From Escherichia coli (GTDB lineage Bacteria > Pseudomonadota > Gammaproteobacteria > Enterobacterales > Enterobacteriaceae), in NCBI RefSeq assembly GCF_003018235.1, contig NZ_CP027437.1: a stretch of 64,000 bases of DNA; one strand, written 5' to 3'. Within the stretch, counting starts at the first letter, position 1. Every line of letters starts with the position of its first letter. The notes under the pieces are model-generated. The model searched no databases and had not been told where the DNA came from. It was given only the letters and a program-made list of their open reading frames with translations. The position numbers were made by a program, and so were the translations under genes. Shown piece by piece: positions 659-59,180 of this stretch.

Positions 659-1716
659 TTACCCTTTGCGATGGCCGTCGACGCGCGGACGCGTGTAGTA
701 ATCGATCAGAGGAACCGTGATGTTCGCCAGCAGGACGGCAAAAGCCACGCCGTCAGGATAGCCGCCGAAACTGCGGATCAACCAGACTAATAAACCCGCC
801 AGCGCGCCGAAAATAAGACGACCACGATTGGTCGTAGAAGCAGTAACCGGGTCAGTCAAAATAAAGAATGCGCCGAGCATAGTCGCACCAGACAGCAGAT
901 GAATTTGCGGTGATGCCAGTGTTTCTGGTGAGAACAACCAGCCCAACGTTGCGCATAACGCCAGCGTTACTAAGAAGCTGAGGGGAATATGCCAGCGAAT
1001 CGCTTTCTGCCATAGCAACCACACGCCGCCAGCCAGCCAGGCGAGATTTACCCATTGCCAACCAGCGCCCGCCAGAATACCGCTGTAGATCGGATATTGC
1101 ATAATCTGTTCAACCGAATGACCGGCACGGACAGAGGTTTTAAATGTATCCAACGGTGTCGCCTGACTAATGCCATCAATACCTAAGCGTAGCGTGTTCA
1201 TATCACCACCACTGGTGGTATGTCCGCTGAAAATAACCTGTATGGCGTCGATAAAACCAGGGATGTTGACCGCAATGTCATGCGACGGTAACCAGCTGGT
1301 CATCTGCACCGGGAAGGAGATCAGTAAGACCACATAACCAATCATTGCCGGATTAAACGGGTTTTGCCCCAGACCGCCATACAACTGTTTAGCGATGATC
1401 ACCGCAAACACCGTACCCAGTACGACCATCCACCATGGCGCGAGGGGGGAATACTTACCGCCAGCAATAAGCCTGTCAGCAATGCTGAGTTATCTTTCAA
1501 CGTTGCGGCTACCGACTGCTTGCGTAGTTTGAGTACGAGAGCTTCGGCTAACAGAGCACTGACCGACGCCAACAGGATCTGAACGAGAGTACCCCAACCA
1601 AAAAACCACAGTTGTGCTGCGATTCCTGGCACGGCTGCGAGCAACACCAACAGCATAATGCGCGATGTCTGGCGCTGGTTATGGGTATAAGGGGAGCTAG
1701 CTATTCTGAATACCAT
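659..1716 (-). pseudogene. rsxD: Rsx/Rnf complex subunit D, disrupted by a 1-nt frameshift
   Basis: Two overlapping ORFs (1399..1716 and 659..1429) together recompose the 352-aa RsxD; frame breaks after ...SIPP at a G6 run (plus 1444-1449) where the expected ...[13 protein letters not shown] needs one more base. Confidence 0.8.
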
Positions 1717-7529: not shown

Positions 7530-8531
7530 TTACTTCGCAGCGACTTTTTCTCGCAGTGCGCGTTTTTCCTCTGCGCTGAGGAAAGCCATTTCCAGACCAT
7601 TAATCTGCGCCTGGCGGATTTGCTCGCGGGATAACCCAGCAGCCGGCGCGGCAACGGTATATTCGTGAATGATATCCACTCCCTGTACGCCGGGATCGTC
7701 AGTGTTAATGCTGGCACGAATGCCATGCTCAAGGAACGTTTTCAGCGGATGTGCCGCCAGCTCTGCCACGGTGCTGGTCTGAATATTGGAGGTCAGACAG
7801 GATTCAATACCAATTTGTTGCTCGGCGAGAAAATCCATCAGCGCCCGATCTTCAATGGCTTTTACGCCATGTCCAATACGCTCCGCACCCAGTTCACGAA
7901 TCGCCTGCCAGATGCTTTCCGGCCCGGCAGCTTCGCCTGCATGGACGGTAATATGCCAGCCCGCATCACGCGCGCGGTTGAAGTGAGAAAGGAACAGACT
8001 TCCCGGGAAACCAAGTTCATCACCGGCTAAATCAAGTGCGGTAATCTGGTCACGGTGGGCTAAAAAGGCCTCCAGCTCTTGCTGACAGGCGGCTTCGCCG
8101 AAGGTCCGGCTCATAATGCCGATAAGCTTCGCCTGCACACCAAAGGTGCGGCAACCCTCACGTACGCCATCGATCACCGCTTCGACAACACCCGCTACAG
8201 GCAGCTGATGTGCCATTGCCATGTAGCCTGGTGAAAAACGCAGCTCGACATAGTGCAGGCCGTGACGGGCTGCATCTTCAATGTTTTCAAATGCCACGCG
8301 GCGACAGGCATCAAGAGAGGCGAGAACTTTAACGCCCCAGTCAAGTTTGGTCAGAAAGCTCACCAGATCGGGTTCGTTGGCAATGACCTGAACGTGGGGA
8401 ATCAGTGTTTCCAGGGATTGTGCAGGAAGCGAGATATTATACTGGCGGCCAAGTTCAAGAATGGTCTGGGGACGAATGTTGCCATCAAGGTGGCGATGGA
8501 TATCAGTTAATGGCAGGGTGGTATCAATCAT
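7530..8531 (-). CDS. add: Adenosine deaminase
   Basis: 333-aa [24 protein letters not shown]... with the metal-binding HxHxDG motif; matches Add. Confidence 0.95.
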
Positions 8532-8634
8532 GGTCGCACTCTTTTTCTGGATATAAAAGTGCGCACCATTATAAAAACAAAGCAGGGTAAAAATCCACGA
8601 TTGCGCAACGATTTTTTACGTTGCGCAATTGGGG

Positions 8635-9807
8635 TTAACGAACAGCGCGGATGGCGTTAATTAATCCAGCAACACCTTTTTCCAGTTTCGAACGCGGGCA
8701 CCCGGCATTGAGACGGACAAAACCACGACCTTCTTCACCGTAGGTATACCCCGGCATGATCGCGACCTTCTCTTGCTCGATAAGCGCTTTTTGCAACGCG
8801 TTGTCGTCAATATTCAACGGACGTAGATCAATCCAGGCCAGATAAGTGGATTGCGGGATCTGCCAGTTGAGTTCAGGGAACGCGGAGTTCATTTTATCTG
8901 CGATATACGTCAGGTTATCTTTCAGATAGACGCGTAAGGCATCCAGCCACGGCGCGCCTTGCTGATAGGCGGCGATATGGGCAGTTAACGCCAGTACTGA
9001 AGGGGAAGAAAGGCCATCACGTCCTTTCAGTGCCGATAAATAGGCATCACGGCTGCTGCTATTTTCTATAATCCCGTAAGCACCGGTCAGGGCGGGAATA
9101 TTGAAACTTTTCGATCCCGACGTTAGCAATGCCCAGTCTCCGCGCGCCACATTACTCCAGGGAATATGCGGCTGCTCGCCCCAAACCATATCCATATGGA
9201 TTTCATCGGAAATAACCCGCACACCATGACGCTCGCACAGGTCAGCCATGATCTCCAGCTCATCGCACGTCCACACTTTCCCGGTAGGATTCTGTGGGCT
9301 ACACAGGAGCATAATTTTACATTCTGGTTTCGCCAACACGGCTTCCAGCTTGCCCATATCGCAAAACCAGCCGTCAGCCTGCTTCTCTAAAGCAACGGGC
9401 ATTACTGTGCGCTGGTTACCTTCAATGGCCTTGTAAAATGCGTCATAGGCGGGTGTGTGGATCACCACGCCTTCACCTGTTTCAGACCACTGACGAATCA
9501 GTTCTGAAACCATATAGATAACAGAAGGGCCATACACCACCGACTGCGTATCAATGGCGGTGTAATGCTGGGTGGAAAACCAGTGGGCAATAGCCGCGAG
9601 AAACTCATCGTTTTTCCAGCGGCTGTAGCCAAACACGCCGTGCATCAGGCGCTGATTCAGCGCCTCGATAATGCAGGGGGCAGTGGCAAAATCCATGTCT
9701 GAAATCGTGAACGGTAACAGGTCAGCAGTGCCGAAACGGTCAGCGACATAATCCCACTGCGTACACCATGTGCCATGACGATCCACGACCTTTGAAAAAT
9801 CGAACAT
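8635..9807 (-). CDS. malY: PLP-dependent cystathionine beta-lyase / maltose regulon modulator MalY
   Basis: 390-aa ORF recognised as MalY; adjacent to malX. Confidence 0.93.
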   Translation of the reverse strand: MFDFSKVVDRHGTWCTQWDYVADRFGTADLLPFTISDMDFATAPCIIEALNQRLMHGVFGYSRWKNDEFLAAIAHWFSTQHYTAIDTQSVVYGPSVIYMVSELIRQWSETGEGVVIHTPAYDAFYKAIEGNQRTVMPVALEKQADGWFCDMGKLEAVLAKPECKIMLLCSPQNPTGKVWTCDELEIMADLCERHGVRVISDEIHMDMVWGEQPHIPWSNVARGDWALLTSGSKSFNIPALTGAYGIIENSSSRDAYLSALKGRDGLSSPSVLALTAHIAAYQQGAPWLDALRVYLKDNLTYIADKMNSAFPELNWQIPQSTYLAWIDLRPLNIDDNALQKALIEQEKVAIMPGYTYGEEGRGFVRLNAGCPRSKLEKGVAGLINAIRAVR

Positions 9808-9816
9808 ATCTTATCC

Positions 9817-12612
<2,796 letters not shown>

Positions 12613-13491: not shown

Positions 13492-13719
13492 TACACTAAC
13501 GGACCGGTAAACAGCCGTACGTGTTGTTTACCGGGATAGCGTGTGCAATTCATTAACGTCTCTGCGAAACAACTGGCAGCCAAATCACGGCTATTGGTTA
13601 ACCAATTTCTGGGTGAAAAGTATACGAATAGAGTGTGCCTTCGCACTATTCAACAGCAATGATAGGCGCTCACCTGACAACGCGGTAAACTAGTTATTCA
13701 CGCTAACTATAATGGTTTT

Positions 13720-14310: not shown

Positions 14311-17886
<3,576 letters not shown>

Positions 17887-44071: not shown

Positions 44072-45280
44072 CGTCCGCGAAATTACCGACGCAATTACGC
44101 AGGCAATCAATAAACCGGGGAGTAGCTGATACTCCCCGGTCATTTCACATATCATCAACGTCGACATAATCGGCGCGTGCGTGGTTGCCGCCAACAGTGT
44201 CGCCATCCCGGTAAATCCGAGTAAAAGCGTAATTTCTTCGCCATCAGGGAACCATAATCCCAGGCTACGACCATACAACATGCCAATGGCAAGACCGATA
44301 AATAGCGTCGGTGTAAAGACACCACCGGGCGCGCCAGAACCACTACTCGCCAGCACGGCAAACAGTTTACAGAGGAAGATCCCGGCAATGATCATTAACA
44401 GTGGCGGGGCGGTTAAAAAGGATTGTACGGTGCTATAGCCGTTGCCCCACACTGCAGGTGTGAACAGGGAAAGCAGACCCACGATCAACCCGCCCAGTGC
44501 CAGTTGCCAGGGCGGCGCAAGTTTGAGACTTACAAATCCACGATGACAGGCGTTCATTAACGTTAACAACAGTGGTCCGCACAGACCTGCCAGCACACCT
44601 GTACTGATAATCAGCGCATAGTCACGAGCCTGAACCGTCACTGAGAGTTGTACGCTGTAGAGTAACGCGTCGCTATGATTAATCAGATTGCTAACCAGCA
44701 ACGCCACGACGGCGGAAATAATCACCGGGCCGAGAGAGGCCAACATCATAGTGCCAAACAGCACTTCGGCTATAAATAAACTGCCAGCAAGCGGGGCGCG
44801 ATAGGCCGCAGCCATTCCCGCCGCAGCTCCACAGGCGATCCATAATTTCCACTCCTGGCGTGGCGTAAAACGTTGGACAAAACAGGAGGCGGCAAGGGCA
44901 GCTAAAAGAATCATCGCACCTTCGCGACCAATTGCACTGCCGCTGGTTACTACCAGCAGAGAGGCAAGCGATTTAACCAGGCTTGCTGCGTAATCAAACT
45001 GCCCATCGGTTTGTAACGCTTCCATGTAATCGGTCGGCGCATGAGGGCGTTGCTGGGTAAATTTCTGCCAGCCCATCAGCAACAAACCCGCCGCCAGTCC
45101 GCCGAGCGCCGGAGTTAGCAGCCGTCGCCACGGGGAAAGATTTGTCGCTGCATTGACCAGACTGCCCGAGTCATTATTGAGGAACAACCACTCCAGTAGC
45201 AGCATCGTATGACGAAACCCGGCAACGGCAAAGGCCGCGAGAATACCGACGACTGTTGCGATAAGCAGACGGCGGAACAT
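44024..45280 (-). CDS. clcB: ClC-family voltage-gated chloride channel ClcB
   Basis: ORF 44024..45340 trimmed to [12 protein letters not shown] (418 aa); ClC selectivity-filter motifs GSAIGREG and GxFxP present. Confidence 0.85.
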
Positions 45281-45473
45281 AGTGCGCAGATCCGGATAGA
45301 TGTGTAGATGATGCATGAGCAGAAATGGGCAATGAAACACGGGCGACTATTTTGCGGCAAAAGAGGCCAGACGCAAAAGCAGTGCGTGCTTTAAGAGATA
45401 AAAAACGTGACACTGTAACCTATTATTGCCGAATTGCGCGTAATCGCCACCATCCGGCAATATTACGGTGATC

Positions 45474-46088
45474 CTATCGAAAGAGTGGTTTAACCGCGAC
45501 AGGAATTAACAGTTGTGATTGCCATTGCGCCAGCGTTAAGCGAGCCAGTTCACCCAGTGCACGGTAGAAAGGGTGTTCTGCTTTTTCGATAAAAACGTCA
45601 AGAAAACGTGTTGACCACGGAAAAAGGTGCCATGCCAGCAATTCTTCGCATTCTGTCTGGCGACCATTCTCCGCCAACCACGCAGCCATCAACAGCAGTG
45701 AACCAAAATGATCTTCCGGTTCGTTTTGCTGCATTTCAAACTGAATGCCTTTCTCGCGCATCCACTGACGAAGTGCCAATGTTGAATCGCCAAACAGCAC
45801 AGATTCGCGATCCAGCCAGACCGACCCCCACGGCGGTGATGGCAGAGCCCACGGACCGACAAACAAACGCTGCCAGGCCTGGGCGCGAGTCTCTTCACTC
45901 TGTGCCTGAAAAGCCGTCACCAGCGGCGCTAATGACGCTTCTGGTAGAGGCCACTGAGTTTCCCAGCCGTCACGGGTGAGTACCGCAACCAGGGGGGCGG
46001 CTTCCGCACTCTCTGGAGCGTAATAAAACAGCGCGCCCAACACGCGCGCCGCGACAGAAAAATTATCTTGCTGTGAAAAATGGGTCAT
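45474..46088 (-). CDS. dmsD: Tat proofreading chaperone DmsD
   Basis: ORF trimmed to MTHFSQQDNFSVAARVLGALFYYAPES (204 aa). Confidence 0.85.
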   Translation of the reverse strand: MTHFSQQDNFSVAARVLGALFYYAPESAEAAPLVAVLTRDGWETQWPLPEASLAPLVTAFQAQSEETRAQAWQRLFVGPWALPSPPWGSVWLDRESVLFGDSTLALRQWMREKGIQFEMQQNEPEDHFGSLLLMAAWLAENGRQTECEELLAWHLFPWSTRFLDVFIEKAEHPFYRALGELARLTLAQWQSQLLIPVAVKPLFR

Positions 46089-46130
46089 TCCTAACATCCT
46101 GAAATGTGCGGGTTGCCCCGCACCAATTTG

Positions 46131-46985
46131 TTAACCTGCAATAGCCATTCCTACCGTCATGTGCAGGCCATAAAAGAGCACACGCCCGATCATCTCACCG
46201 CCAAGTATGAGGATTAGCCCCAGAACAAGTCCGGCAACGTGAGGTTCACGGCGACGAATGAGCGGACAAAGCCAGCATCCTAGACCTGTGCATAACAATA
46301 CCACACGCCAGACCTGTAAGGAGGCGTAATCTGGTACCAGTGCGCTGGCTTGTTGTACGGATGAGTGAATAGACGCCAGAGACAAACCTTGCAGCACAAT
46401 CACCCCGGCACAAGCGATCAGCGCCAGAACGCTAATGATGGCAAATGGTGTGGTATTAAATGTAACGCGGGCTGCCCGCAGAATTGCAGCAGCAAGTATT
46501 GGACCGCTCAATAATACTGTCAGGAAGAAAGCCAGCGTAGTGTAACCGTTATGCCAGGTTGGCACAGTGTCGATTTGATACACGCCGGTCATCATCCAGA
46601 CGAAAATGACGCCGAGCGCCATGCTGACAAGTAACCAGAGTTTCCCCAACGCTTGCGGCATTTTACCGATGATCGCCACCAGCCACCATAATCCGCCAAC
46701 GGCAAAAAATATTGAACCGGCAGCAATCTCGTTACTCAGACCAGAAGCTCCGATTCGATTCAGCGAGTTAAACGCCCGCAGTGGCGATCCCAGGTGCATG
46801 ACAGAGGCAATAAACCCGATGCCCATCAACAGCCAGAGGAAAAACATGCCACGAACAATGTGCTGACGGTCTGCGTCATTTTTGGCGGCGAACCAGCCAA
46901 TTCCGCTAACAATCAGCGCGCCTACTACGCATTGACCCAATACGGTAAAGATAACCAGTGGCCATTCATGCCATCCATTTCCCAT
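46131..46985 (-). CDS. ynfH: DmsC-type membrane anchor subunit of the YnfEFGH oxidoreductase
   Basis: ORF 46131..47225 trimmed to MGNGWHEWPLVIFTVLGQ (284 aa); reverse-complement ATG at 46983-46985. Confidence 0.85.
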   Translation of the reverse strand: MGNGWHEWPLVIFTVLGQCVVGALIVSGIGWFAAKNDADRQHIVRGMFFLWLLMGIGFIASVMHLGSPLRAFNSLNRIGASGLSNEIAAGSIFFAVGGLWWLVAIIGKMPQALGKLWLLVSMALGVIFVWMMTGVYQIDTVPTWHNGYTTLAFFLTVLLSGPILAAAILRAARVTFNTTPFAIISVLALIACAGVIVLQGLSLASIHSSVQQASALVPDYASLQVWRVVLLCTGLGCWLCPLIRRREPHVAGLVLGLILILGGEMIGRVLFYGLHMTVGMAIAG

Positions 46986-46986
46986 T

Positions 46987-47604
46987 TTACACTTCCTCCG
47001 GATTAGCCAGATAACCAGTGGTATCGCCGGTCGGGCGGCTGTTGGCGTTAGGTTTGATAACGATATTGGGTTTTGTGAAATGCGCGCGCGGCAGTGGCGC
47101 GACGGCAGCCAGAGTGCCGTGCTTCTGGCGCAGCTCTTCAATTGGACCGAACTCAAGTGCACGCAGCGGGCAGGATTCGACGCATATGGGTTGTTTCCCC
47201 TCGGCGACGCGCGAATAACAACCATCGCACTTCGTCATGTGCCCTTTTTCAGCATTGTACTGTGGCGCGCCGTACGGACAAGCCATGTGGCAGTAGCGGC
47301 AGCCGATACAAACATCTTCATCAACCACCACAAAGCCATCTTCACGCTTATGCATTGCGCCGCTGGGGCAGACTTTTGTACATGCGGGGTCATCGCAATG
47401 GTTACAGGAGATGGAGAGATAATAAGCGAACACGTTCTGGTGCCAGACGCCATTATCTTCCTGCCAGTCGCCGCCAGCATATTCATAAATACGGCGGAAA
47501 CTGACTTCCGGGCCAAGATCTTTAAAATCTTTGCACGCCAGTTCGCAGGTTTTACAGCCAGTACAGCGGCTGGAATCGATAAAAAATCCATATTGTGTGG
47601 TCAT
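46987..47604 (-). CDS. ynfG: DmsB-type 4x[4Fe-4S] electron-transfer subunit
   Basis: 205-aa ORF with four Cys clusters (CxxCxxCxxxC). Confidence 0.9.
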   Translation of the reverse strand: MTTQYGFFIDSSRCTGCKTCELACKDFKDLGPEVSFRRIYEYAGGDWQEDNGVWHQNVFAYYLSISCNHCDDPACTKVCPSGAMHKREDGFVVVDEDVCIGCRYCHMACPYGAPQYNAEKGHMTKCDGCYSRVAEGKQPICVESCPLRALEFGPIEELRQKHGTLAAVAPLPRAHFTKPNIVIKPNANSRPTGDTTGYLANPEEV

Positions 47605-47614
47605 GGGCTACTCC

Positions 47615-50041
47615 TTAAACCTTTTCGATCTGGACAAGATTGCTGTGCGACGGGTTTCCCTTTGCCAGCGGTGAAGGGCGGTGAGAGGTCAGAATATTGA
47701 TACTGCCGCCGTGATCGACCCGGTCACCAAACATATCCGCTTTAAGCCACGCACCTTGCCCGATGGCGGTAACGCCAGGCAGAATACGCGGAGTCACTTT
47801 TGCGGCAATCAGCATTTCTCCATTATTGTTAAATACCCGCACGGTATCGCCATGACGGATACCGCGTGCCTGAGCATCAATAGGGTTTATCCACACCTCT
47901 TGTGGGCAGGCCTGCTGTAACACATCAATATTGCCGTAGCTGGAGTGGGTACGCGCTTTGTAGTGGAAGCCCGTTAGCTGCAGTGGATAGGTTTTCCGCA
48001 GGGGATCGTCCCAGCCATCAAAACCTGGGGTATACGCAGGAAGGGGATGAATAATTTCATCTTTTTTCAATTCCCAGGTATCCGCAATCGTCGCCAGTCG
48101 TTCAGAATAAATTTCGATTTTCCCCGAAGGTGTTTTCAACGGGTTTGCCTGTGGATCTTCACGGAATGCGCGGAAAGCGACGTAGTGTTCTTCCGGGCAT
48201 TTTTTCTTAAAGATCCCGGTCGTTTTCATCTCCTCGTAGTCGGGCATCTCAGGGTTACGTTCCTTCGTTTTCGCATGGAGATATTTGATCCATTCGTGCT
48301 GACTGCGGCCTTCAGTAAAGGTTTGATAAACGTCTGGTCCTAAGCGTTTGGCGACTTCACTCAGCATCCAGTAGATGGGTTTGCGTTCAAATTTTGCTGA
48401 GGTTGCGGGTTGGGCGAGGATCACATAGCCCATATTCCCGGCAGATTCGTGAGAGATAAGGTCTTCTTGCTCTGTTGGCATCAGGTCGGGCAACAGGATA
48501 TCGCAATACTTAGCCGAGGCAGTCATGAAGTGGTCAATGCCAACAATCATCTCGCACTTGCTGTCATCCTGAAGCACCTCATGGGTGTGATTGATGTCGC
48601 CATGTTGATTGATCAATGTGTTACTGGCGTAGCACCATAAAAACTTGATGGGGACATCCAGTTTTTCTTTTCCACGAACACCATCACGGGTCGCGGTCAT
48701 TTCCGTACCGTGGTCGATGGCATCTGTCCATGTAAAGACGGAAATCTGCGTTTTAACAGGATTCTCAAGCATCGGGAACCATTCTACCCCCAGATCCCAG
48801 CTACCTTCGCGTACACCTGAGTTGCCGCCGTTTATGCCGACGTTACCGGTGAGAACGGAAAGCATGGCAATAGCGCGGGACGTTTGTTCGCCGTTGGAGT
48901 GTCGTTGTGGCCCCCAACCCTGACAAATATAAGCAGGTTTTGCTGAACCGATCTCTCGTGCCAACTGGATAATTTTTTCTGCCGGGATGCTGGTGATTTT
49001 TGCTGCCCATTCCGGCGTTTTAGCTATGCCGTCAGGCCCTTCGCCCAGAATATAGGCTTTATAATGCGCGTTACGTGGTGCGTTGGCGGGCAGCGTTTTT
49101 TCATCGTAACCAACACAATATTTGTCGAGAAATGGCTGATCGACCATGTTTTCAGTAATCAGTACCCAGGCAATCGCACAGGCCAGTGCGCCATCGGTGC
49201 CTGGGCGAATTGGCAGCCATTCATCTTCACGCCCGGCAGCAGTGTCGTTATAACGTGGATCGATGACGATCATGCGTGCGTTTGAACGTTCTCGGGCTTG
49301 CTCGACGTAGTAAGTGACACCACCGCCGCTCATCCGGGTTTCTGCCGGGTTATTTCCGAACATAACGACCAGTTTCGTATTGGCTATATCATCCGGGCTG
49401 TTGCCATCATTGGCACCGAACATATAACTCATTGCGGCACTGATTTGAGCGGTACTGTAGCTGCCATAGCGACTGAGAAAACCACCGCAAGAGTTCATCA
49501 GACGGTACGGGACGTTCGAGTTGGTGATGTTTCCGCCATCTACGCCTGTTCCGTACAGGACATGTACAGCCTCATTGCCGTATTCTTTCAGGATCCGCCG
49601 AAGATTATCACTGATGGTATCCAGGGCTTCATCCCAACTTATCCGTTCAAATTTACCTTCACCGCGCTTGCCGACGCGCTTCATGGGATATTTCAACCTA
49701 TCAGGATGATTCATCCGTCGGCGGATAGAGCGCCCGCGTAAACACGCCCGAACCTGATGATTACCGTAGACGTCGTCACCTGTCGTATCAGACTCCACCC
49801 AGTACACGGTGTCATCTTTCACATGCAAACGTAACAGACAGCGGCTCCCGCAGTTAACGGTGCAGGAACTCCAGACCGCTTTCTCTTCTACCGGTGCCTC
49901 TGCCGCTCGGACCATTTGGGAAAATGGCAGAGTGAAAGCACTGCTTGCCAGCGCAAGACTGCCAAGTGCGGAGGTTTTCATCAGACTTCTACGGCTGATT
50001 TCAGCCTTCATGAGCGCCTCTGTGGTATGGATTTTCATCAT
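47615..50041 (-). CDS. ynfF: Tat-exported molybdopterin oxidoreductase (DmsA paralog, selenate reductase-associated) YnfF
   Basis: 808-aa ORF with twin-arginine signal (SRRSLMKTSALGSLALAS) and Mo-bisMGD catalytic domain. Confidence 0.9.
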   Translation of the reverse strand: MMKIHTTEALMKAEISRRSLMKTSALGSLALASSAFTLPFSQMVRAAEAPVEEKAVWSSCTVNCGSRCLLRLHVKDDTVYWVESDTTGDDVYGNHQVRACLRGRSIRRRMNHPDRLKYPMKRVGKRGEGKFERISWDEALDTISDNLRRILKEYGNEAVHVLYGTGVDGGNITNSNVPYRLMNSCGGFLSRYGSYSTAQISAAMSYMFGANDGNSPDDIANTKLVVMFGNNPAETRMSGGGVTYYVEQARERSNARMIVIDPRYNDTAAGREDEWLPIRPGTDGALACAIAWVLITENMVDQPFLDKYCVGYDEKTLPANAPRNAHYKAYILGEGPDGIAKTPEWAAKITSIPAEKIIQLAREIGSAKPAYICQGWGPQRHSNGEQTSRAIAMLSVLTGNVGINGGNSGVREGSWDLGVEWFPMLENPVKTQISVFTWTDAIDHGTEMTATRDGVRGKEKLDVPIKFLWCYASNTLINQHGDINHTHEVLQDDSKCEMIVGIDHFMTASAKYCDILLPDLMPTEQEDLISHESAGNMGYVILAQPATSAKFERKPIYWMLSEVAKRLGPDVYQTFTEGRSQHEWIKYLHAKTKERNPEMPDYEEMKTTGIFKKKCPEEHYVAFRAFREDPQANPLKTPSGKIEIYSERLATIADTWELKKDEIIHPLPAYTPGFDGWDDPLRKTYPLQLTGFHYKARTHSSYGNIDVLQQACPQEVWINPIDAQARGIRHGDTVRVFNNNGEMLIAAKVTPRILPGVTAIGQGAWLKADMFGDRVDHGGSINILTSHRPSPLAKGNPSHSNLVQIEKV

Positions 50042-50098
50042 TACTCACTTATTGCTTTTCAAACAAAATGTCATGTCAGAATTTATGGTTGTAGTGGG

Positions 50099-52524
50099 TT
50101 ATATTTTTTCGATCTCGACCAGATTAGTGTGCTGCGGGTTTCCCTTCGCCAGTGGTGAAGGGCGCAGAGTGGTTAGCGTATTCACACAGCCGCCATGGTC
50201 GATTTTATCGCCAGACATATTGGCCTCGTGCCAGGCTCCCTGGCCCATAGCGCTAACCCCAGGGAGAATGCGTGGTGTCACTTTGGCTGGTAGCCGAACT
50301 TCGCCACGATGGTTATACACCCGCACCATATCGCCGTTGGCAATCCCACGTTTCTGTGCGTCTATAGGGTTGATCCACACCTCCTGACGGCAGGCAGCCT
50401 TCAGGACATCAATGTTGCCGTAGGTCGAGTGAGTACGGGATTTGTAATGGAAACCGAACAGTTGCAGTGGAAAGGTACTACGTTCAGGGGAGTCCCAGCC
50501 TTCAAAGGTTGAGGCATAAACCGGCAGTGGGCTTATCACTTCATCTTTTTCCAGTTCCCAGGTACGGGCAATTTCCGCCAGCTTGCTGGAATAAATTTCA
50601 ATCTTACCGGAAGGCGTTTTAAGTGGATTTGCCTCGGGGTCGTCACGAAATGCTTTGTAGGCGACAAAATGACCATTGGGATCTTTACGCTTATAGATAC
50701 CCATTTTTTTCAGTTCGTCGTAAGACGGTAACGCCGGATCTTTGGCAAGCATTTTGGCGTACAGATGTTGTAACCATTGTTCCTGCGTGCGACCTTCTGT
50801 GAACTTTTGATAGACGTCAGGTCCAAGACGTTTCGCGACCTCACTCAGGATCCAGTAAATCGGTTTGCGTTCGAATTTTTCGCTGGTGACTGGCTGAAGG
50901 AAAATGAGATATCCCATGTTACCGGCGTAGTCGTTAGGAATAATATCTTCCTGCTCAACGGTCATCAGGTCTGGCAGCAGAATGTCGGCATATTTTGCCG
51001 ATGAGGTCATAAAGTTTTCGATGACCACAATCATTTCGCATTTCGATTCGTCCTGCAGAATTTCATGCGTTTTGTTGATGTCAGAATGCTGATTAACGAG
51101 GGTATTTCCCGCATAGTTCCAGATGAACTTAATGGGCACATCCAGTTTATCTTTGCCCCGGACACCGTCGCGGATTGCCGTCATTTGCGGGCCATGATCG
51201 ATAGCATCTGTCCAGCTGAAGCAGGAGATTGACGTTTTGACCGGATTATCCAGCACCGGTAGGCGTTCTATGGTAATGGTATAGGTCGATTCACGCGCGC
51301 CACTATTCCCGCCGCTGATGCCGACATTGCCCGTCAGAATAGGCAACATCGCAATAGCACGTGCAGTCAGCTCGCCGTTTGCCTGGCGTTGCGGTCCCCA
51401 GCCCTGGCAGATATAAGCGGGTTTTGCTGTGCCAATTTCACGCGCCAGTTTGATGATACGGTCCACCGGGATACCGGTAATTTGCGAAGCCCACTGCGGC
51501 GTTTTCGCTGTTTTATCGTCACCTTCACCAAGAATATAGGCTTTATAGTGACCATTTTTTGGTGCATCTGCGGGTAAGGTTTTTTCGTCATAGCCGACGC
51601 AGTATTTATCGAGAAAAGGTTGATCAACGAGATTTTCGTTAATCAATACCCAGGCAATACCCGCAACCAGCGCGGCATCGGTGCCCGGGCGAATAGGTTG
51701 CCATTCGTCTTCACGACCAGCAGCTGTATCGGTATATCGCGGATCGATAACAATCATTTTGCGTTCGATTTCTCGCGCGCTTTTTCAAGAAGATAAGTGA
51801 TGCCACCGCCGCTCATGCGGGTTTCTGCCGGGTTGTTACCAAACATCACGACCAGCTTGCTGTTTTCAATATCCGTGGTGCTGTTGCCATCATTACTGCC
51901 GTAGGTGTAGGGCATGGCACAGGAAATTTGCGCGGTGCTGTAGGAGCCATACTGGTTGAGTGAACCGCCGTAGCAGTTCATCAGGCGTTTGACCGCCGAG
52001 GCGGATGGCGAAGAGCGGGTCATATTGCCGCCAACGATCCCTGAAGAGTACTGAATATATACAGCCTCATTGCCATATTGTTCGACGGTTTTTTTCAGGC
52101 TACTGGCGATAGTATCCAGGGCTTCATCCCAGCTAATCCGTTCGAATTTGCCTTCGCCGCGTTTGCCCACGCGTTTCATTGGGTAATTCAAGCGATCGGG
52201 ATGATTAATACGCCGACGGATGGAGCGACCGCGCAAACAGGCACGTACTTGATGATTGCCATACTCGTCGTTGCCGGTGTTGTCAGTTTCCACCCAGGTC
52301 ACTTCATTATCTTTAACATGCAGACGAAGTGCACAGCGGCTACCACAGTTGACGGAACAGGCACCACAGAGCACTTTCTCGCTGGCCTGTTGTACCGCTG
52401 CCGCTGCACTGCGCAGGGTGAACGGTAAAGAAAAACCGCCTGCAGCCAGCGCCAGAGAACCTATCGCGGTAGATTTAACGAGTGTTCTGCGGCTGATGCC
52501 CACCATTTGTTCATTTTTGGACAT
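50099..52524 (-). pseudogene. ynfE: Tat-exported molybdopterin oxidoreductase YnfE (ynfF paralog), split by a -1 frameshift
   Basis: ORFs 51754..52524 (256 aa, Tat signal SRRTLVKSTAIGSLALAA) and 50099..51757 (552 aa) join as ...EKSNAK|MIVIDPRY...; the break is an A4 run on the coding strand where A5 would keep the frame. Confidence 0.8.
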
Positions 52525-52722
52525 AACTCACTCCCTGTTCTTTATCGTTATATAAAAGTTTATATATTGAATATTTAGCGCGCTAACAATAGAGGGAGTC
52601 TACCTATTTTGGGTTAAGAATTATTAATCCATATCAATAGAAGGGTATGAGTAATAAGGTGGGATTATGTTGTATGTTCAAATCGCCGGATGTGTCGTAT
52701 CCGGCGTGCAGTCGATAATGTG

Positions 52723-53028
52723 TTACTGCGGTTCGGCAGGCGCGCCATCCTGGGTAGACTGCGCGGGAGCAGAGACGTTACCGCTGGTGGTGCGGGTGTA
52801 GAGAATTTTATGCGTATCATTAGCGCAATGCCCGACGACCTGGGAATCAGGCTGATCAACCTGGTCATTGGGTACAATACTTAACGTGAAGCTGCTTTCG
52901 GGTACGCCATTATTGATAATGCGCTGTGATATATCGCTCTGTATGCGCTCACAGGATCCCGGCGCGGCGAGTACCGCGGGTGAGGCGAGGGCGAGCAGAA
53001 GCGCGGCACAGCAGGTTGAGAGTTTCAT
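52723..53028 (-). CDS. ynfD: Small secreted protein YnfD (DUF1161)
   Basis: ORF trimmed to MKLSTCCAALLLALASPAVLA (signal peptide), 101 aa. Confidence 0.75.
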   Translation of the reverse strand: MKLSTCCAALLLALASPAVLAAPGSCERIQSDISQRIINNGVPESSFTLSIVPNDQVDQPDSQVVGHCANDTHKILYTRTTSGNVSAPAQSTQDGAPAEPQ

Positions 53029-53135
53029 CATAAGCTCCTTACGCGAAGATAACTTCTCTAAGCATAGCATTTAACGTGTAAAGTACTGTATTTGCTACTA
53101 TGATTGAGAATCATCTCTACTCTCTGGTGACTGTT

Positions 53136-53846
53136 GTGAAATACAAATTACTGCCATGCTTACTCGCGATATTCCTCACAGGATGTGACCGCACAGAGGT
53201 AACACTTTCCTTTACCCCTGAGATGGCCAGTTTCTCTAATGAATTCGATTTTGATCCGCTGCGTGGTCCGGTAAAAGATTTCACTCAGACATTAATGGAT
53301 GAGCAAGGTGAAGTGACGAAACGTGTTTCGGGGACTTTGTCGGAAGAAGGCTGTTTTGATTCACTCGAATTACTGGATCTGGAAAATAATACCGTGGTTG
53401 CCCTGGTACTGGACGCCAATTATTACCGTGATGCCCAGACACTGGAGAAAAGAGTTCGTTTGCAGGGAAAATGCCAGCTAGCAGAATTACCTTCTGCCGG
53501 GGTGAGTTGGGAAACCGATGATAATGGCTTTGTGATTAAAGCCAGCAGCAAACAGATGCAGATGGAATATCGCTATGATGATCAGGGTTATCCGCTGGGT
53601 AAAACCACGAAAAGTAACGACAAAACATTATCTGTTAGCGCTACGCCATCAACGGATCCGATCAAAAAATTAGATTACACAGCGGTTACTTTACTGAATA
53701 ATCAAAGGGTTGGTAATGTAAAACAGAGCTGTGAATATGACAGTCACGCCAATCCGGTGGACTGTCAGCTAATCATTGTTGATGAAGGAGTAAAACCCGC
53801 CGTCGAACGGGTTTACACCATCAAAAATACTATCGATTATTATTAA
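53136..53846 (+). CDS. ynfC: UPF0257 lipoprotein YnfC (GTG start)
   Basis: Start placed at the GTG of VKYKLLPCLLAIFLTGC (lipobox LTGC), giving 236 aa. Confidence 0.7.
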   Translation: MKYKLLPCLLAIFLTGCDRTEVTLSFTPEMASFSNEFDFDPLRGPVKDFTQTLMDEQGEVTKRVSGTLSEEGCFDSLELLDLENNTVVALVLDANYYRDAQTLEKRVRLQGKCQLAELPSAGVSWETDDNGFVIKASSKQMQMEYRYDDQGYPLGKTTKSNDKTLSVSATPSTDPIKKLDYTAVTLLNNQRVGNVKQSCEYDSHANPVDCQLIIVDEGVKPAVERVYTIKNTIDYY

Positions 53847-53848
53847 TG

Positions 53849-54409
53849 CTATTGTGCGGTCGGCTTCAGGAGAGTCTGACCCGGTATTTTGTGCTCTGCC
53901 AGATACTGATGCTGGAATATGCACATGCGAATGGCATTCCGATATTGACCATTAATAAAGAACTCATGCATCAATTCACCTTCAACCGTAAAGCCAAGCT
54001 TGCGGTAAATGTGAATCGCTTTTTCATTCTCTTTATCGACGATCAGATACAGCTTATAGAGATTGAGAACGGTGAAGCCATAGTCCATTGCTAATTTTGC
54101 GGCACGCGTTGCCAGACCTTTCCCCTGATATTCCGGGGAGATAATTATCTGAAATTCTGCGCGGCGATGAACATGGTTAATTTCCACCAGCTCCACCAGA
54201 CCGGCTTTTTCGCCGTCACATTCCACCACAAAGCGCCGTTCGCTCTGATCGTGAATATGCTTATCGTACAGATCAGAGAGTTCAACAAAGGCTTCGTAGG
54301 GTTCCTCAAACCAGTAACGCATCACACTGGCGTTATTGTCGAGTTGATGTACATAGCGTAAATCTTCACGCTCCAGCGGGCGTAGCTTAACACTGTGGGC
54401 GCTTGGCAT
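53849..54409 (-). CDS. speG: Spermidine N1-acetyltransferase (GNAT)
   Basis: 186-aa [42 protein letters not shown]... recognised as SpeG. Confidence 0.92.
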
Positions 54410-54443
54410 AACGTGTCCTTACATTCCTTAAATCAATAACAGG

Positions 54444-54785
54444 TTATGGGGTAATAACGCGGCCAGTTCGACGGTCCAGGCAGCGCAAAGTATTTGGCTC
54501 CCAGTAGGCATTGATGTTGGCGCTTTGCTCACATTTATCGCGGTTATCAAAAGCGGCGTCGGCTTTATCCCACTCTTTTTCAGTGCGTTTATTCACTTTC
54601 TGGCGCAGATTGCGCGTGTCATTCCATTGCTCTTTTTCCATAGCGGCGTGCTGGCGGCTTTGTGCACTGTCGCCAGACTCAATCACCAGTTTGTTAGTTT
54701 CGGCATGAACAGTTGTGCTCAATGCCAGTGTGCAAGGCAGCAGAAAAGCGAGCAGGCCAATTCGTTTGCTGAGAGTAATTTTCAT
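54444..54785 (-). CDS. ynfB: UPF0482 secreted protein YnfB
   Basis: 113-aa ORF with signal peptide; position. Confidence 0.8.
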
Positions 54786-54919
54786 AATTCATTCCCTGTA
54801 TGAATGATTAAAGGTGATTCTACACCATCCACTGCGAACGCAAAACGTACCAGGAGGATGTTTATATTGATGATATTATGTCGTCCTATAACTATACATG
54901 ATGTCAATAAGTGACAAAG

Positions 54920-55246
54920 ATGATTAAAACAACGTTACTATTTTTTGCTACTGCGCTGTGTGAAATTATTGGATGCTTTCTGCCCTGGTTGTGGTTAAAA
55001 CGAAACGCCAGTATCTGGCTGTTACTTCCGGCGGGGATTTCTCTGGCACTGTTTGTCTGGTTGTTAACGTTGCATCCTGCGGCGAGTGGGCGTGTTTACG
55101 CGGCTTATGGTGGCGTTTATGTCTGCACGGCGTTGATGTGGCTGCGCGTTGTGGATGGCGTGAAACTGAGTCTTTATGACTGGACGGGGGCGTTGATTGC
55201 GCTTTGCGGCATGTTGATCATTGTTGCGGGCTGGGGGCGCGCGTAA
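54920..55246 (+). CDS. ynfA: UPF0060 small membrane protein YnfA
   Basis: ORF trimmed to [26 protein letters not shown] (108 aa). Confidence 0.8.
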
Positions 55247-55451
55247 GGACATAAATCCATTTTATCAATAAGATACAAGGAAGTGTCAGCTGACAAAAGG
55301 TATTCTATTTCATCTTTTGTCAACCATTCACGGCGCAAATATACGCCTTTTTTTGTGATCACTCCGGCTTTTTTTGATCTTCATGCTTGTATGGTAGTAG
55401 CTCAGTTGCGTAGATTTCATGCATCATGACAAGCGATGCAAGGAATCGAAC

Positions 55452-56666
55452 ATGAAGATCGTAAAGGCTGAAGTTTTTGTTACCTGTCCGGGGCGTAATT
55501 TCGTCACATTAAAAATCACCACTGAGGACGGTATTACGGGCCTTGGGGATGCCACCCTCAATGGACGTGAGCTTTCCGTGGCCTCTTATTTGCAGGATCA
55601 CCTTTGTCCGCAGCTTATTGGTCGCGATGCGCACCGTATCGAAGATATCTGGCAGTTTTTCTATAAAGGTGCTTACTGGCGTCGCGGTCCGGTTACGATG
55701 TCGGCCATTTCAGCGGTTGATATGGCGCTGTGGGATATTAAAGCCAAAGCTGCCAACATGCCGCTTTACCAGTTACTCGGCGGCGCGTCTCGTGAAGGGG
55801 TGATGGTTTATTGCCATACCACCGGTCACAGTATTGATGAAGCTCTGGATGATTATGCTCGTCATCAGGAGCTGGGATTCAAAGCCATCCGCGTGCAGTG
55901 CGGAATCCCTGGTATGAAAACCACCTACGGCATGTCGAAAGGTAAAGGTCTGGCTTATGAACCCGCAACTAAAGGACAGTGGCCGGAAGAGCAGCTGTGG
56001 TCGACGGAGAAATACCTCGATTTTATGCCGAAATTGTTTGACGCGGTACGTAACAAGTTTGGTTTTAATGAACATTTGCTGCATGACATGCACCATCGCT
56101 TAACGCCTATTGAAGCGGCGCGCTTTGGTAAAAGCATTGAAGATTATCGCATGTTCTGGATGGAAGACCCGACGCCTGCGGAAAACCAGGAATGCTTCCG
56201 TCTCATTCGCCAACATACCGTCACACCCATCGCGGTGGGTGAAGTCTTCAACAGCATCTGGGACTGCAAGCAACTGATTGAAGAGCAACTTATCGATTAT
56301 ATCCGCACTACGCTGACCCACGCGGGTGGCATTACCGGTATGCGCCGGATTGCCGATTTTGCTTCGTTGTATCAGGTACGTACTGGCTCACACGGTCCTT
56401 CCGATTTGTCACCAGTCTGCATGGCTGCGGCGCTGCACTTTGATCTGTGGGTCCCCAATTTCGGTGTCCAGGAGTACATGGGTTATTCCGAACAAATGCT
56501 TGAAGTCTTCCCGCACAACTGGACTTTCGATAACGGCTATATGCATCCGGGAGACAAACCGGGTCTTGGCATCGAATTCGATGAAAAGCTGGCGGCGAAA
56601 TATCCCTATGAACCTGCTTATCTACCAGTCGCACGTCTGGAAGATGGCACGCTGTGGAACTGGTAA
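55452..56666 (+). CDS. rspA: Starvation-sensing protein RspA (enolase superfamily, mannonate dehydratase-like)
   Basis: ORF trimmed to [40 protein letters not shown] (404 aa). Confidence 0.9.
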
Positions 56667-56677
56667 GGAGTAAGATA

Positions 56678-57697
56678 ATGAAAAGCATATTAATTGAAAA
56701 ACCGAATCAACTGGCGATTGTCGAACGTGAAATACCCACCCCGTCAGCGGGTGAAGTACGAGTAAAAGTAAAACTTGCCGGAATTTGTGGTTCAGATAGC
56801 CATATTTATCGTGGGCATAATCCTTTTGCGAAATATCCGCGCGTCATTGGTCATGAATTCTTTGGCGTCATTGATGCAGTGGGTGAAGGCGTGGAAAGCG
56901 CCAGAGTCGGTGAACGTGTTGCAGTCGATCCGGTGGTCAGCTGTGGGCATTGCTATCCGTGCTCTATAGGTAAACCGAACGTTTGTACGACACTGGCTGT
57001 ATTAGGTGTGCACGCTGACGGTGGTTTCAGTGAATATGCCGTGGTGCCGGCAAAAAATGCGTGGAAAATTCCTGAAGCAGTGGCCGATCAATATGCGGTG
57101 ATGATCGAACCTTTTACCATTGCGGCTAACGTTACCGGTCATGGTCAACCGACTGAAAATGATACCGTTCTGGTTTACGGTGCCGGTCCAATCGGCCTGA
57201 CGATCGTTCAGGTATTAAAAGGCGTCTATAACGTTAAGAATGTGATTGTTGCCGATCGCATTGATGAACGACTGGAAAAAGCGAAAGAGAGCGGGGCAGA
57301 CTGGGCGATTAATAACAGCCAGACACCGCTTGGCGAGATTTTCGCTGAAAAAGGCATAAAGCCGACATTAATTATCGATGCGGCTTGTCATCCTTCAATC
57401 CTGAAAGAAGCCGTAACGCTGGCTTCTCCAGCGGCACGTATTGTATTGATGGGCTTCTCCAGTGAACCGTCTGAAGTGATTCAGCAAGGAATTACCGGAA
57501 AAAAACTCTCTATTTTCTCTTCACGCTTAAATGCAAATAAATTTCCGGTCGTTATCGACTGGTTAAGTAAAGGGTTAATTAAACCAGAAAAATTAATTAC
57601 CCATACGTTTGATTTCCAGCATGTTGCTGATGCCATTAGTTTATTTGAACAGGATCAAAAACATTGCTGCAAAGTCTTACTCACTTTTTCTGAATAA
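56678..57697 (+). CDS. rspB: Starvation-sensing protein RspB (Zn-dependent alcohol dehydrogenase family)
   Basis: ORF trimmed to MKSILIEKPNQLAIVEREIP (339 aa); GxGxxG and Zn-ligand Cys motifs. Confidence 0.9.
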   Translation: MKSILIEKPNQLAIVEREIPTPSAGEVRVKVKLAGICGSDSHIYRGHNPFAKYPRVIGHEFFGVIDAVGEGVESARVGERVAVDPVVSCGHCYPCSIGKPNVCTTLAVLGVHADGGFSEYAVVPAKNAWKIPEAVADQYAVMIEPFTIAANVTGHGQPTENDTVLVYGAGPIGLTIVQVLKGVYNVKNVIVADRIDERLEKAKESGADWAINNSQTPLGEIFAEKGIKPTLIIDAACHPSILKEAVTLASPAARIVLMGFSSEPSEVIQQGITGKKLSIFSSRLNANKFPVVIDWLSKGLIKPEKLITHTFDFQHVADAISLFEQDQKHCCKVLLTFSE

Positions 57698-57754
57698 TAC
57701 CAATAACGGCGAGTAAGTAGTACGCATCTTACCTCTTTTTTAGAGATAACCATT

Positions 57755-57883
57755 ATGACAATAGAAAAACACGAAAGAAGCACTAAGGATTTGGTGAAAG
57801 CAGCAGTATCGGGATGGCTGGGCACTGCGCTTGAATTTATGGATTTCAAGAGTCATACGTGTCAACTATTTGATAAATATTAA
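57755..57883 (+). pseudogene. ydfJ: N-terminal remnant of MFS transporter gene ydfJ, truncated by prophage insertion
   Basis: 42-codon ORF MTIEKHERSTKDLVKAAVSGWLGTALEFMDFKSHTCQLFDKY reads like an MFS sugar/metabolite-transporter N-terminus and stops abutting the integrase 3' end. Confidence 0.55.
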
Positions 57884-57884
57884 A

Positions 57885-59180
57885 TTAATTTTTCATTGCT
57901 TCGTTATGGGGCATGGTTGGGGCAAACTCGCTTAACTGTGTATTTAACAAAGCTACCTGTGCATTATTGTTTTCAGACATCCATTTTCCGTATACCTGAA
58001 ATACCATTTGCGCATCTGCATGGCCCATCTGGTTTGCTATAAATGCCGGGTTAGCACCAGCTGTCAGCGACCAGCAGGCATAAGTATGTCTCGACTGATA
58101 TGATTTTCGATGGCGGAGTCCGGCACGTTTTATCGCTGCGTCCCACATCTGCCTTATTGAGTCAACGGTAAAATGGTCACCATAATTTTTTACTCTCGCT
58201 GACACTTCAGGTTGAAAAACAAAGGTGCATTTTTGTTTTTCTGTTCTGCCATACTCTCTGAGGTGAACATCAATGATATGCTCTTTGCTCAGTCTCGTTA
58301 ATGTCATCTGACTCCGGAGAGCGTCGATTGCTGGCTTAATAAGATGAATGACCCGATTGGTTCCCGCCTGTGTTTTTGGTACCGTGAAACGGTCTTTTGC
58401 TAAATTTCTCCTGATCATCATTGTTCCATTTTTCAGATCTATGTCCTCCCATCCAAGTGCACACAGCTCACCAGGGCGAACGCCAGTATAAACAGAAACA
58501 CACCATAAATTTTTTGCTTGCTGATTTCTGCACGCATCGATAAGACGGATAAATTCCTCCCGCGAAAGAGGATCCGGAATGGTTCTTGATTCCTTTAATG
58601 GCGAGATCCCCTTAAACGGATTATCTGGCAGGTAACCGTTATCAACACCAAACTGGAACACGGCGTTAAGATTTGTCATGTAATTATTTACAGTTACAGC
58701 CGATCTCCCTGGTTGTGTAACAATATAGTTACTTTTGGGGATCTGGTATCCAGTCAGTAGCTCTTTACGAACCTCCAGTAATTTTTCTTTATTAATCGAT
58801 GAGGCAAGATTTTTTTCACCGATTATGCTCAGGATATTTTTGATGACGGCACGGTATGTGTTGAGTGATGTTTTGGCGACTTCAGTTTCTTTCAGTGCCA
58901 GAAATTTTTCAGCCAGTTCTTTTATGGTTAAATCTTGTCGGGCCTCACCAAATTTTTCCAGATTGCGTGAGGAGGGAAACTGTTTTGCATAGTCGAAAAC
59001 ACCAGTTTTTATTGCGTAACAAACAGAGGAGCGTAGTTCACCTGCAACGCGCCTGTTTTTTGCTGTGTCAGGAACCCCCAGATTTTCCCTGACTCTTACG
59101 CCTTTATAAACAAACCAGATACGTAATTTCCATCCATGGTTTTCCACGCCTGTCGGATATTTCATTTCAACTTCTCTCAT
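57885..59180 (-). CDS. Phage tyrosine integrase (lambda Int family), apparently intact
   Basis: 431-aa ORF with C-terminal catalytic-domain residues consistent with tyrosine recombinases (R...HxxR...Y in ...SRHTYACWSL...); start could be M1 or M6. Confidence 0.85.
   Translation of the reverse strand: MREVEMKYPTGVENHGWKLRIWFVYKGVRVRENLGVPDTAKNRRVAGELRSSVCYAIKTGVFDYAKQFPSSRNLEKFGEARQDLTIKELAEKFLALKETEVAKTSLNTYRAVIKNILSIIGEKNLASSINKEKLLEVRKELLTGYQIPKSNYIVTQPGRSAVTVNNYMTNLNAVFQFGVDNGYLPDNPFKGISPLKESRTIPDPLSREEFIRLIDACRNQQAKNLWCVSVYTGVRPGELCALGWEDIDLKNGTMMIRRNLAKDRFTVPKTQAGTNRVIHLIKPAIDALRSQMTLTRLSKEHIIDVHLREYGRTEKQKCTFVFQPEVSARVKNYGDHFTVDSIRQMWDAAIKRAGLRHRKSYQSRHTYACWSLTAGANPAFIANQMGHADAQMVFQVYGKWMSENNNAQVALLNTQLSEFAPTMPHNEAMKN

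Follow-up and report, generated by a model that had tools for sequence, protein, structure and literature searches.

A one-base deletion in a short A-run divides ynfE into two clean fragments, probably marking a genuine frameshift pseudogene in an Escherichia coli clone

Results

Organization of the ynfEFGH-dmsD locus

The window (the whole stretch of E. coli DNA analysed, 64,000 nucleotides) contains the ynfEFGH-dmsD operon. The gene ynfE is the first of the operon and lies downstream of ynfD, collinear with annotated loci, in the standard order rspBA-ynfA-ynfB-speG-ynfC-ynfD-ynfEFGH-dmsD-clcB. The features of the operon and of the break in ynfE are as follows.

51754..52524, minus strand: ynfE 5' fragment, residues 1-256 (256 aa), with the Tat signal, the Fe4S4 domain and the first third of the molybdopterin oxidoreductase domain
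50099..51757, minus strand: ynfE 3' fragment, residues 257-808 (552 aa), with the remainder of the molybdopterin domain and the MGD-binding domain, without signal peptide
51757..51760, minus strand: A4 run (the A of Ala255 GCA plus Lys256 AAA), site of the 1-nt deletion; A5 in intact alleles
51754..51756, minus strand: premature TGA stop made directly by the deletion, overlapping the native Met257 ATG as ATGA
51755-51757, minus strand: native Met257 ATG of ynfE, one base upstream of the stop frame
47615..50041, minus strand: ynfF, intact paralogous catalytic subunit, 808-aa ORF, no indels relative to references; RefSeq start at 50038
46987..47604, minus strand: ynfG, iron-sulfur subunit, intact, no indels relative to references
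46131..46985, minus strand: ynfH, membrane anchor, intact, no indels; coordinates mapped from locus L001
45474..46088, minus strand: dmsD, Tat proofreading chaperone, last gene of the operon, intact, no indels relative to references

A sequence-only reading of this DNA had interpreted the two ynfE open reading frames as the halves of an 808-aa Tat-dependent molybdoenzyme, and translations, Pfam matches and alignment all agree with it. The N-terminal fragment contains the twin-arginine motif SRRTLVK at residues 11-17 of its translation, PF04879 (Molybdop_Fe4S4) at residues 54-108, and profile positions 1-127 of PF00384. The C-terminal fragment contains profile positions 140-353 of PF00384, together with PF01568 (Molydop_binding). 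The YnfE domain set of PF04879, PF00384 and PF01568 is present but spread over two polypeptides, with PF00384 divided between profile positions 127 and 140. The break falls inside PF00384 just ahead of the core strand MIVIDP, which aligns with VICINP of Rhodobacter DMSO reductase 1eu1. The fragments correspond exactly to residues 1-256 and 257-808, the first ending in ...EKAREKSNAK and the second starting with MIVIDPRYTDTAAGREDEW, and neither carries an out-of-frame tail.

Annotated ynfE ("selenate/tellurate reductase subunit YnfE") is matched in 5,111 of the 5,426 complete E. coli genomes at ≥80% coverage, and the best identity to the ynfE of the window among complete genomes is 99.4%. All 40 of the best ynfE matches listed span 2427 nt in frame, one base more than in the window. 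Among the best-matching complete RefSeq E. coli genomes listed, none is closer than about 99.0-99.4% over the stretches compared.

A one-base deletion breaks the ynfE frame

The minus strand of ynfE at 51740-51800 reads ...GCG CGC GAG AAA TCG AAC GCA AAA TGA TTG TTA TCG ATC CGC GAT AT..., so that the GCA AAA TGA with a nested ATG described in the sequence-only reading is there on direct inspection. Intact close E. coli relatives have GCA AAA ATG at codons 255-257. In a base-level alignment with six references, the window reads GCAAAATG at the run, whereas five of the six reference alleles read GCAAAAATG and strain 042 has the synonymous GCCAAAATG. The comparison with ynfE of other strains, which had been proposed as a check, therefore returns A5 in the references and A4 in the window. 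This gap, in the A-run of ynfE, is the only one between window and references within the operon.

Over its full length, the ynfE of the window (2426 nt) can be aligned with annotated ynfE genes of 2427 nt, the identity reaching 99.4% and the sole gap lying in the A-run, indicating that the match is not due to chance. Compared with intact orthologues, it carries an indel of one base, which shifts the reading frame. Adding one A yields an uninterrupted frame of 808 codons, as had been predicted, and the restored protein differs from YnfE of strain Res13-Lact-PER13-34 at three residues. In sum, sequence, open reading frames and alignment to references all bear out the earlier claim that a one-base frameshift in an A-run splits ynfE.

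The paralogue ynfF, which had been cited as the intact parallel, is indeed an 808-aa open reading frame without indels relative to references. Its equivalent region reads ...SNARMIVIDPRY..., and its single private change is synonymous. At the gene level, ynfF is thus the sole intact catalytic-subunit gene of the operon, as the sequence-only reading had stated.

The deletion is present in independent assemblies

The sequence-only reading had kept open the possibility of a homopolymer sequencing error, in which case the strain would truly carry A5 and ynfE would be intact. Another gene of the window gives this possibility some initial weight, and serves as an internal control.

1399-1716 and 659-1429: split open reading frames of rsxD, produced by a C7 to C6 homopolymer frameshift (plus-strand G-run at 1444-1449)

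An exact-product look-up finds the C-terminal fragment of rsxD on a single 5.01-Mb contig and no other, while at least 24 contigs encode the intact 352-aa RsxD that results from restoring the frame; C7 is present at two loci whose flanks are 100% identical to the window. The same assembly therefore contains another homopolymer frameshift, with a product that no other contig encodes. The existence of A5 sister isolates is also in line with an error at ynfE.

The frameshift in ynfE behaves differently. In an exact-sequence look-up in the assembly collection, 21-23 contigs encode the 256-aa YnfE product and 20 encode the 552-aa product. One of the contigs with the 256-aa product is a 5,012,557-bp NCBI contig; 22 of 23 are shorter (20-200 kb), and all of those displayed are Logan assemblies of SRA runs. 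We read the DNA of four SRA-run loci (SRR21507360, SRR15713652, SRR11357309, and SRR20959444), and all four have A4 (GCAAAATGA). Over 12.8-19.5 kb, each of these loci shows 1-7 differences from the window, indicating that they come from separate isolates of one clone, and they also differ from one another by SNPs. In addition, the window is not generally error-ridden: it differs from the nearest complete genomes by five indels over 62.8 kb, and a sixth indel, at 45400, is seen against a third reference.

The rsxD frameshift is not reproduced and the ynfE frameshift is, so the look-up separates assembly-private frameshifts from lineage-shared ones. On the basis of independent assemblies, the A5 to A4 deletion in ynfE is genuine in the DNA and is not an assembly artefact. 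The homopolymer error that the sequence-only reading allowed for is rejected; given exact products on some 20-23 contigs and A4 in at least four independent SRA-run assemblies, such an error is scarcely credible.

History of the deletion within the clone

Against the commonest close allele (WP_000041647-type, P0031), the restored protein carries three substitutions: V52L, W53C, and L276Q.

52366..52371, minus strand: V52L (52371) and W53C (52366), clone-specific, directly ahead of the first Cys in the FS0 cluster motif
51698..51700, minus strand: L276Q (CAA), clone-specific, in the DEW(L/I)PIRPGTD motif

Position 52 is polymorphic elsewhere (V, I or L), and position 276 is L or I in other alleles and L in ynfF. 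W53 is invariant among the alleles read and is shared by ynfF. Among about 5,280 complete genomes, short-query searches find no exact match to the V52L/W53C/L276Q alleles. Eight contigs, e.g. GCA_012768955.1 and SRR35421096, encode an intact 808-aa YnfE with the identical three residues (P0032), indicating that the three substitutions are older than the frameshift. Decay after inactivation is therefore rejected as their cause. Region-wide, the private changes of the clone comprise eight non-synonymous and three synonymous ones, so the three amino-acid changes of YnfE are not by themselves evidence of relaxed selection.

To place the deletion, we use a SNP matrix of seven genotypes over about 19.5 kb, which has few informative sites. 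At 57636, two A5 loci (L019 and L020) have a derived base in common, and at 42328 and 57503 they are ancestral; the A4 loci form the complementary group. L019 and L020 are thus a sister clade to the A4 isolates. Site 55385, which adjoins a variable A7/A8 run, is homoplastic and at odds with a simple two-clade tree. With these few sites, one of them homoplastic, the matrix fits a single A5 to A4 event. The most parsimonious order would be the three substitutions, then the split of the clone, then a single A5 to A4 deletion in one branch. The A5 allele is present in sister isolates of the clone and absent from this A4 sub-lineage.

Inside the A4 clade, the only change in ynfE is one synonymous SNP, and no further disabling lesion is seen. 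The deletion is therefore recent. The lack of extra lesions is expected for a recent event and is no positive sign of decay.

The matrix also bears on the possibility that the A-run is a phase-variable (contingency) switch that toggles ynfE on and off at high frequency. A4 and A5 both occur within one clone, and the same change recurs in other lineages (see below), as a switch would predict. However, known contingency tracts are longer than 4-5 nt, the length of this run, which is no long hypermutable tract. Moreover, the available SNP matrix sorts the A4 and A5 isolates into two groups, which fits a single event, and the predicted A6 products of the run are not found by exact-product look-up in the collection. 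We therefore give a switch next to no probability.

The same deletion recurs on other ynfE haplotypes

The 256-aa truncation ending in SNAK is found on other allelic backgrounds as well. The same GCAAAATGA is present on at least three other ynfE haplotypes, which differ from the window and from each other by 23-64 nt, including sites flanking the run; these differences indicate independent events. It is confirmed in the DNA of L023 and L024 (a metagenome scaffold and ERR6160410), of L025, L027, and L028 (three SRR250522xx runs), and of L029 (E. coli LR-48). An NCTC strain reads GCCAAATGA, an equivalent deletion from a GCC AAA ATG allele. RefSeq labels the ynfE of LR-48 (NZ_AP027543.1, AABJ95_RS10485) "frameshifted", so the exact lesion is already known. 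LR-48 has A4 on a different haplotype, and the notion that A4 is absent from all complete E. coli genomes is rejected accordingly; the absence holds for the window's own ynfE haplotype only.

The A-run at codons 255-257 is one of 11 homopolymer runs of at least five bases in ynfE, including two A7 and three A6. On the P0031-type allele, the 256-aa product is found on 20 contigs. Shortening of the A7 run at nt 430 to A6 predicts a 167-aa product, for which the collection lists 119 blocks, more than for the 256-aa product; the corresponding 662-aa product from the A7 run at nt 1816 occurs on three contigs. A 248-aa form of YnfE in Shigella boydii and S. dysenteriae is present on 102 contigs, and a 353-aa form on 360. 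Some database instances of truncated ynfE will be sequencing errors. With the nt 430 product more widespread and nt 1816 also yielding one, these controls weaken the case for a special hotspot or a selected allele at the A5 run. Since frameshifts at other ynfE runs are as frequent or more so, the recurrence of A4 needs no selection.

The 62.8 kb compared are collinear between the window and E. coli and contain no IS insertion, which makes a Shigella origin an unlikely cause of the decay. In NY1601, a close relative, it is ynfF that is frameshifted instead. To judge from these alleles, it is commonplace for homopolymer slippage to disable one of the two paralogues, and the recurrence of the ynfE deletion fits a dispensable gene with mutable homopolymers.

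Translation across the break

Replication slippage in the A5 run would have converted GCA AAA ATG to GCA AAA TGA at ynfE codons 255-257. Translation would then stop after Lys256, within the molybdopterin-oxidoreductase domain, and some ribosomes may restart at the Met257 ATG in the ATGA overlap. No Shine-Dalgarno-like sequence is present 5-12 nt upstream of this ATG on direct reading of the window, so such a restart would depend on termination-reinitiation coupling.

Full-length YnfE could in principle still be made in sufficient amount by compensatory recoding, either through low-level -1 slippage of tRNA-Lys on A_AAA before UGA or through transcriptional slippage. The site lends itself to this in one respect: an A_AAA followed by a stop permits perfect -1 re-pairing, and the slip gives exactly ...A-K-M.... 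An A4 run, however, is too short for appreciable transcriptional slippage. On direct reading, the ynfE stop is preceded by the A_AAA tetramer only and not by a slippery heptamer X_XXY_YYZ. The 88 nt downstream of the stop contain no stimulatory structure and fold no better than shuffled sequences (z = +1.06; 172 of 200 shuffles fold at least as well). Nor is the frameshift arrangement conserved among orthologues: all 40 of the best genomes listed, as well as the A5 sister isolates, are in frame. With no heptamer and with orthologues in frame, nothing here is selected for slippage. 'Shifty stops' and compensatory frameshifting are known phenomena (PMC5009743). However, Z_ZZN tetramers without a stimulator shift at about 0.15% against a background of 0.11% in E. 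coli, and among the six tetramers that respond to a strong pseudoknot, A_AA.A is the least efficient (PMC4066793). Programmed frameshifting at ynfE is therefore rejected, the tetramer being weak and downstream structure lacking, and we regard compensatory recoding as very improbable.

Alternatively, the two fragments could form a functional split enzyme, in which ribosomes restart at ATGA, the fragments assemble around bis-MGD in the cytoplasm, and the complex is exported by Tat on the signal of the N-terminal piece. The split is clean, without a frameshifted tail, and the native Met257 provides a restart in the ATGA overlap. Tat exports folded complexes. The partner YnfG is believed to travel with YnfE as such a complex (PMC5203670). 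Furthermore, the identical split arose independently in at least four backgrounds and persists in clones. Against this, the break lies immediately before a core β-strand inside the PF00384 fold rather than at a domain boundary, the restart codon has no Shine-Dalgarno-like sequence, and the abundant frameshifts at other ynfE runs give no clean split. In two carriers of an equivalent split, moreover, the 3' part is further disrupted, by a second frameshift in L026 and by an interruption in L030. Within 8.7 kb, the L026 locus shows deletions at three A-runs when compared with the window, and this sequencing run may be error-prone. Taken together, these observations leave a functional split enzyme very doubtful.

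A related proposal is that the clean ATGA split is a favoured modification of the operon, either because coupling avoids polarity on ynfFGH-dmsD or because the fragments reassemble and are exported jointly by Tat. If true, coupling or reassembly would explain why the identical deletion arises and persists in at least four E. coli backgrounds. We grant this proposal only a slender chance.

Discussion

We conclude that ynfE in this genome is very probably a real, heritable one-base frameshift pseudogene of an ordinary kind. The deletion would have a single recent origin inside one clone, of which other members are still intact, and other E. coli backgrounds acquired the same deletion in independent events.

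In this sub-lineage YnfE has most likely lost its function. The break lies inside PF00384; it leaves the N-terminal piece with the Tat signal, the FS0 domain and its cysteines but without the greater part of the cofactor-binding fold, and the C-terminal piece without an export signal. With ynfF, ynfG, ynfH, and dmsD intact, the remaining selenate/tellurate reductase activity would probably rest on YnfF, and selenate and tellurate reduction in the sub-lineage probably depends on YnfF alone. The main contribution in Salmonella comes from YnfE, and YnfF "does not contribute greatly" (PMC5203670). By analogy, the residual YnfF-based activity in this sub-lineage may be low or reduced, and not simply backed up.

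As an ordinary real pseudogene, the ynfE case itself is of little significance. For annotation, ynfE here merits the label of a frameshifted pseudogene, like that of LR-48 in RefSeq, and should be recorded neither as two genes nor as a "corrected" error. A natural near-isogenic pair for studying the role of each paralogue could be drawn from the A4 and A5 isolates, which are close relatives. More generally, exact-product look-ups in independent assemblies can tell real homopolymer frameshifts, such as that in ynfE, from assembly-private ones, such as that in rsxD.

Several known systems resemble the locus described here. Programmed -1 sites, such as dnaX (A_AAA_AAG) and those of IS1 and the IS3 family, likewise combine an A-rich slippery sequence with tRNA-Lys and a -1 shift that gives the full-length product. 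In contrast, ynfE has a tetramer only; a stimulatory Shine-Dalgarno sequence, a hairpin and a pseudoknot are all lacking, the arrangement is not conserved, and the in-frame form of the gene is the ancestral and prevalent state. Other truncated ynfE genes of E. coli and Shigella likewise represent loss of the same paralogue with the rest of the operon kept, and many are broken at homopolymers. Their lesions, however, lie at different positions, and most leave out-of-frame tails rather than a clean split.

The closest counterpart is the ynfE pseudogene of LR-48, which has the identical GCA AAA TGA, a gene of 2426 nt and the same split into 256 + 552 aa. It differs by 63 nt (a K-12-like allele), which makes its origin independent, and is without V52L, W53C, and L276Q. 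The intact YnfE/YnfF reductase of E. coli K-12 and Salmonella has the same locus, synteny, domain set and Tat signal, and the window shows up to 99.4% nucleotide identity to annotated ynfE; ynfE is uninterrupted in the ynfEFGH-dmsD operon there and interrupted here.

Lineage of the window and substitutions in the clone

Among the best matches in RefSeq complete E. coli genomes, none is closer to the stretches searched than about 99.0-99.4%. The 62.8 kb of the window that was compared is collinear with its nearest E. coli genomes and contains no IS element. Judged from these sequence comparisons, the lineage of the window looks like a sparsely sampled lineage of E. coli, not Shigella.

The clone, comprising the window strain and its near-identical isolates, carries 8 non-synonymous and 3 synonymous private substitutions in window 44100-58524, as scored against six references. 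The non-synonymous substitutions are the following.

rspB: E276K
ynfB: A19T
speG: T175I
ynfE: V52L, W53C and L276Q
clcB: A147V and L368F

The excess of amino-acid changes across this interval fits weak purifying selection, or a clone of recent origin. In addition, three substitutions are variable inside the clone, namely dmsD T5P, ynfF D217N and ynfF A46P, the last of which is positioned close to the signal-peptide cleavage region.

The rspA-ynfA intergenic region also varies between clone members. In particular, a run at window 55369 is polymorphic in length (A7 or A8), and a SNP 16 nt from it, at 55385, is homoplastic on the clone tree. This position is G in the window and in L019 and L020, two clone loci with intact ynfE, and A in the remaining clone members and the outgroups.

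Frameshift in rsxD

A C7 to C6 deletion interrupts rsxD in the window, where the coding strand reads ...ATT CCC CCC TCG....

1444-1449 (+): G6, corresponding to C6 on the coding strand, at which rsxD is split
1399-1716 and 659-1429 (-): the two ORFs of the split rsxD

Relatives with flanks identical to those of the window have C7 in rsxD. The C-terminal fragment (256 aa) is matched exactly by 1 contig only, and the clone's intact 352-aa RsxD is found in at least 24 contigs. Within the clone, C6 is confined to the source assembly, in contrast to the ynfE lesion, which is not private to it. Outside the clone, the C6 allele recurs in unrelated E. coli at 97-99.4% identity. The deletion in the window is either specific to this strain or an assembly error at the homopolymer.

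Other length differences from reference genomes

Four further length differences, all outside rsxD and ynfE, distinguish the window from reference genomes, including M7424, its nearest complete genome.

14407-14417: C11 homopolymer in the uidR-uidA intergenic region; C6 in M7424
about 13539-13546: hdhA-uidR intergenic region, with an insertion of 8 bp, GCGTGTGC, compared with M7424
45400: T6 versus T7, one base off the reference, between dmsD and clcB
62766: G4 versus G5, one base off the reference, in the Rac-like prophage region past rspB, apparently intergenic

The C11 homopolymer is the sole run of at least 9 bases in the window. It could affect uidA expression, or it could be an assembly artefact.

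ynfE and ynfF in other genomes

Two contigs (ERZ584591 and ERR11591570), one from an ENA assembly and one from a Logan run assembly, terminate exactly at ...GCCAAA, in the codon-256 run of ynfE. Variants of A-run length coexisting in a sample may break the assembly graph at this run.

In E. coli NY1601 (NZ_CM135959.1, locus 8488-10910), ynfF is annotated as frameshifted and ynfE is intact. This strain is a close relative in the ynf region, and its arrangement is the reverse of that in the window, where ynfE is broken and ynfF is intact.
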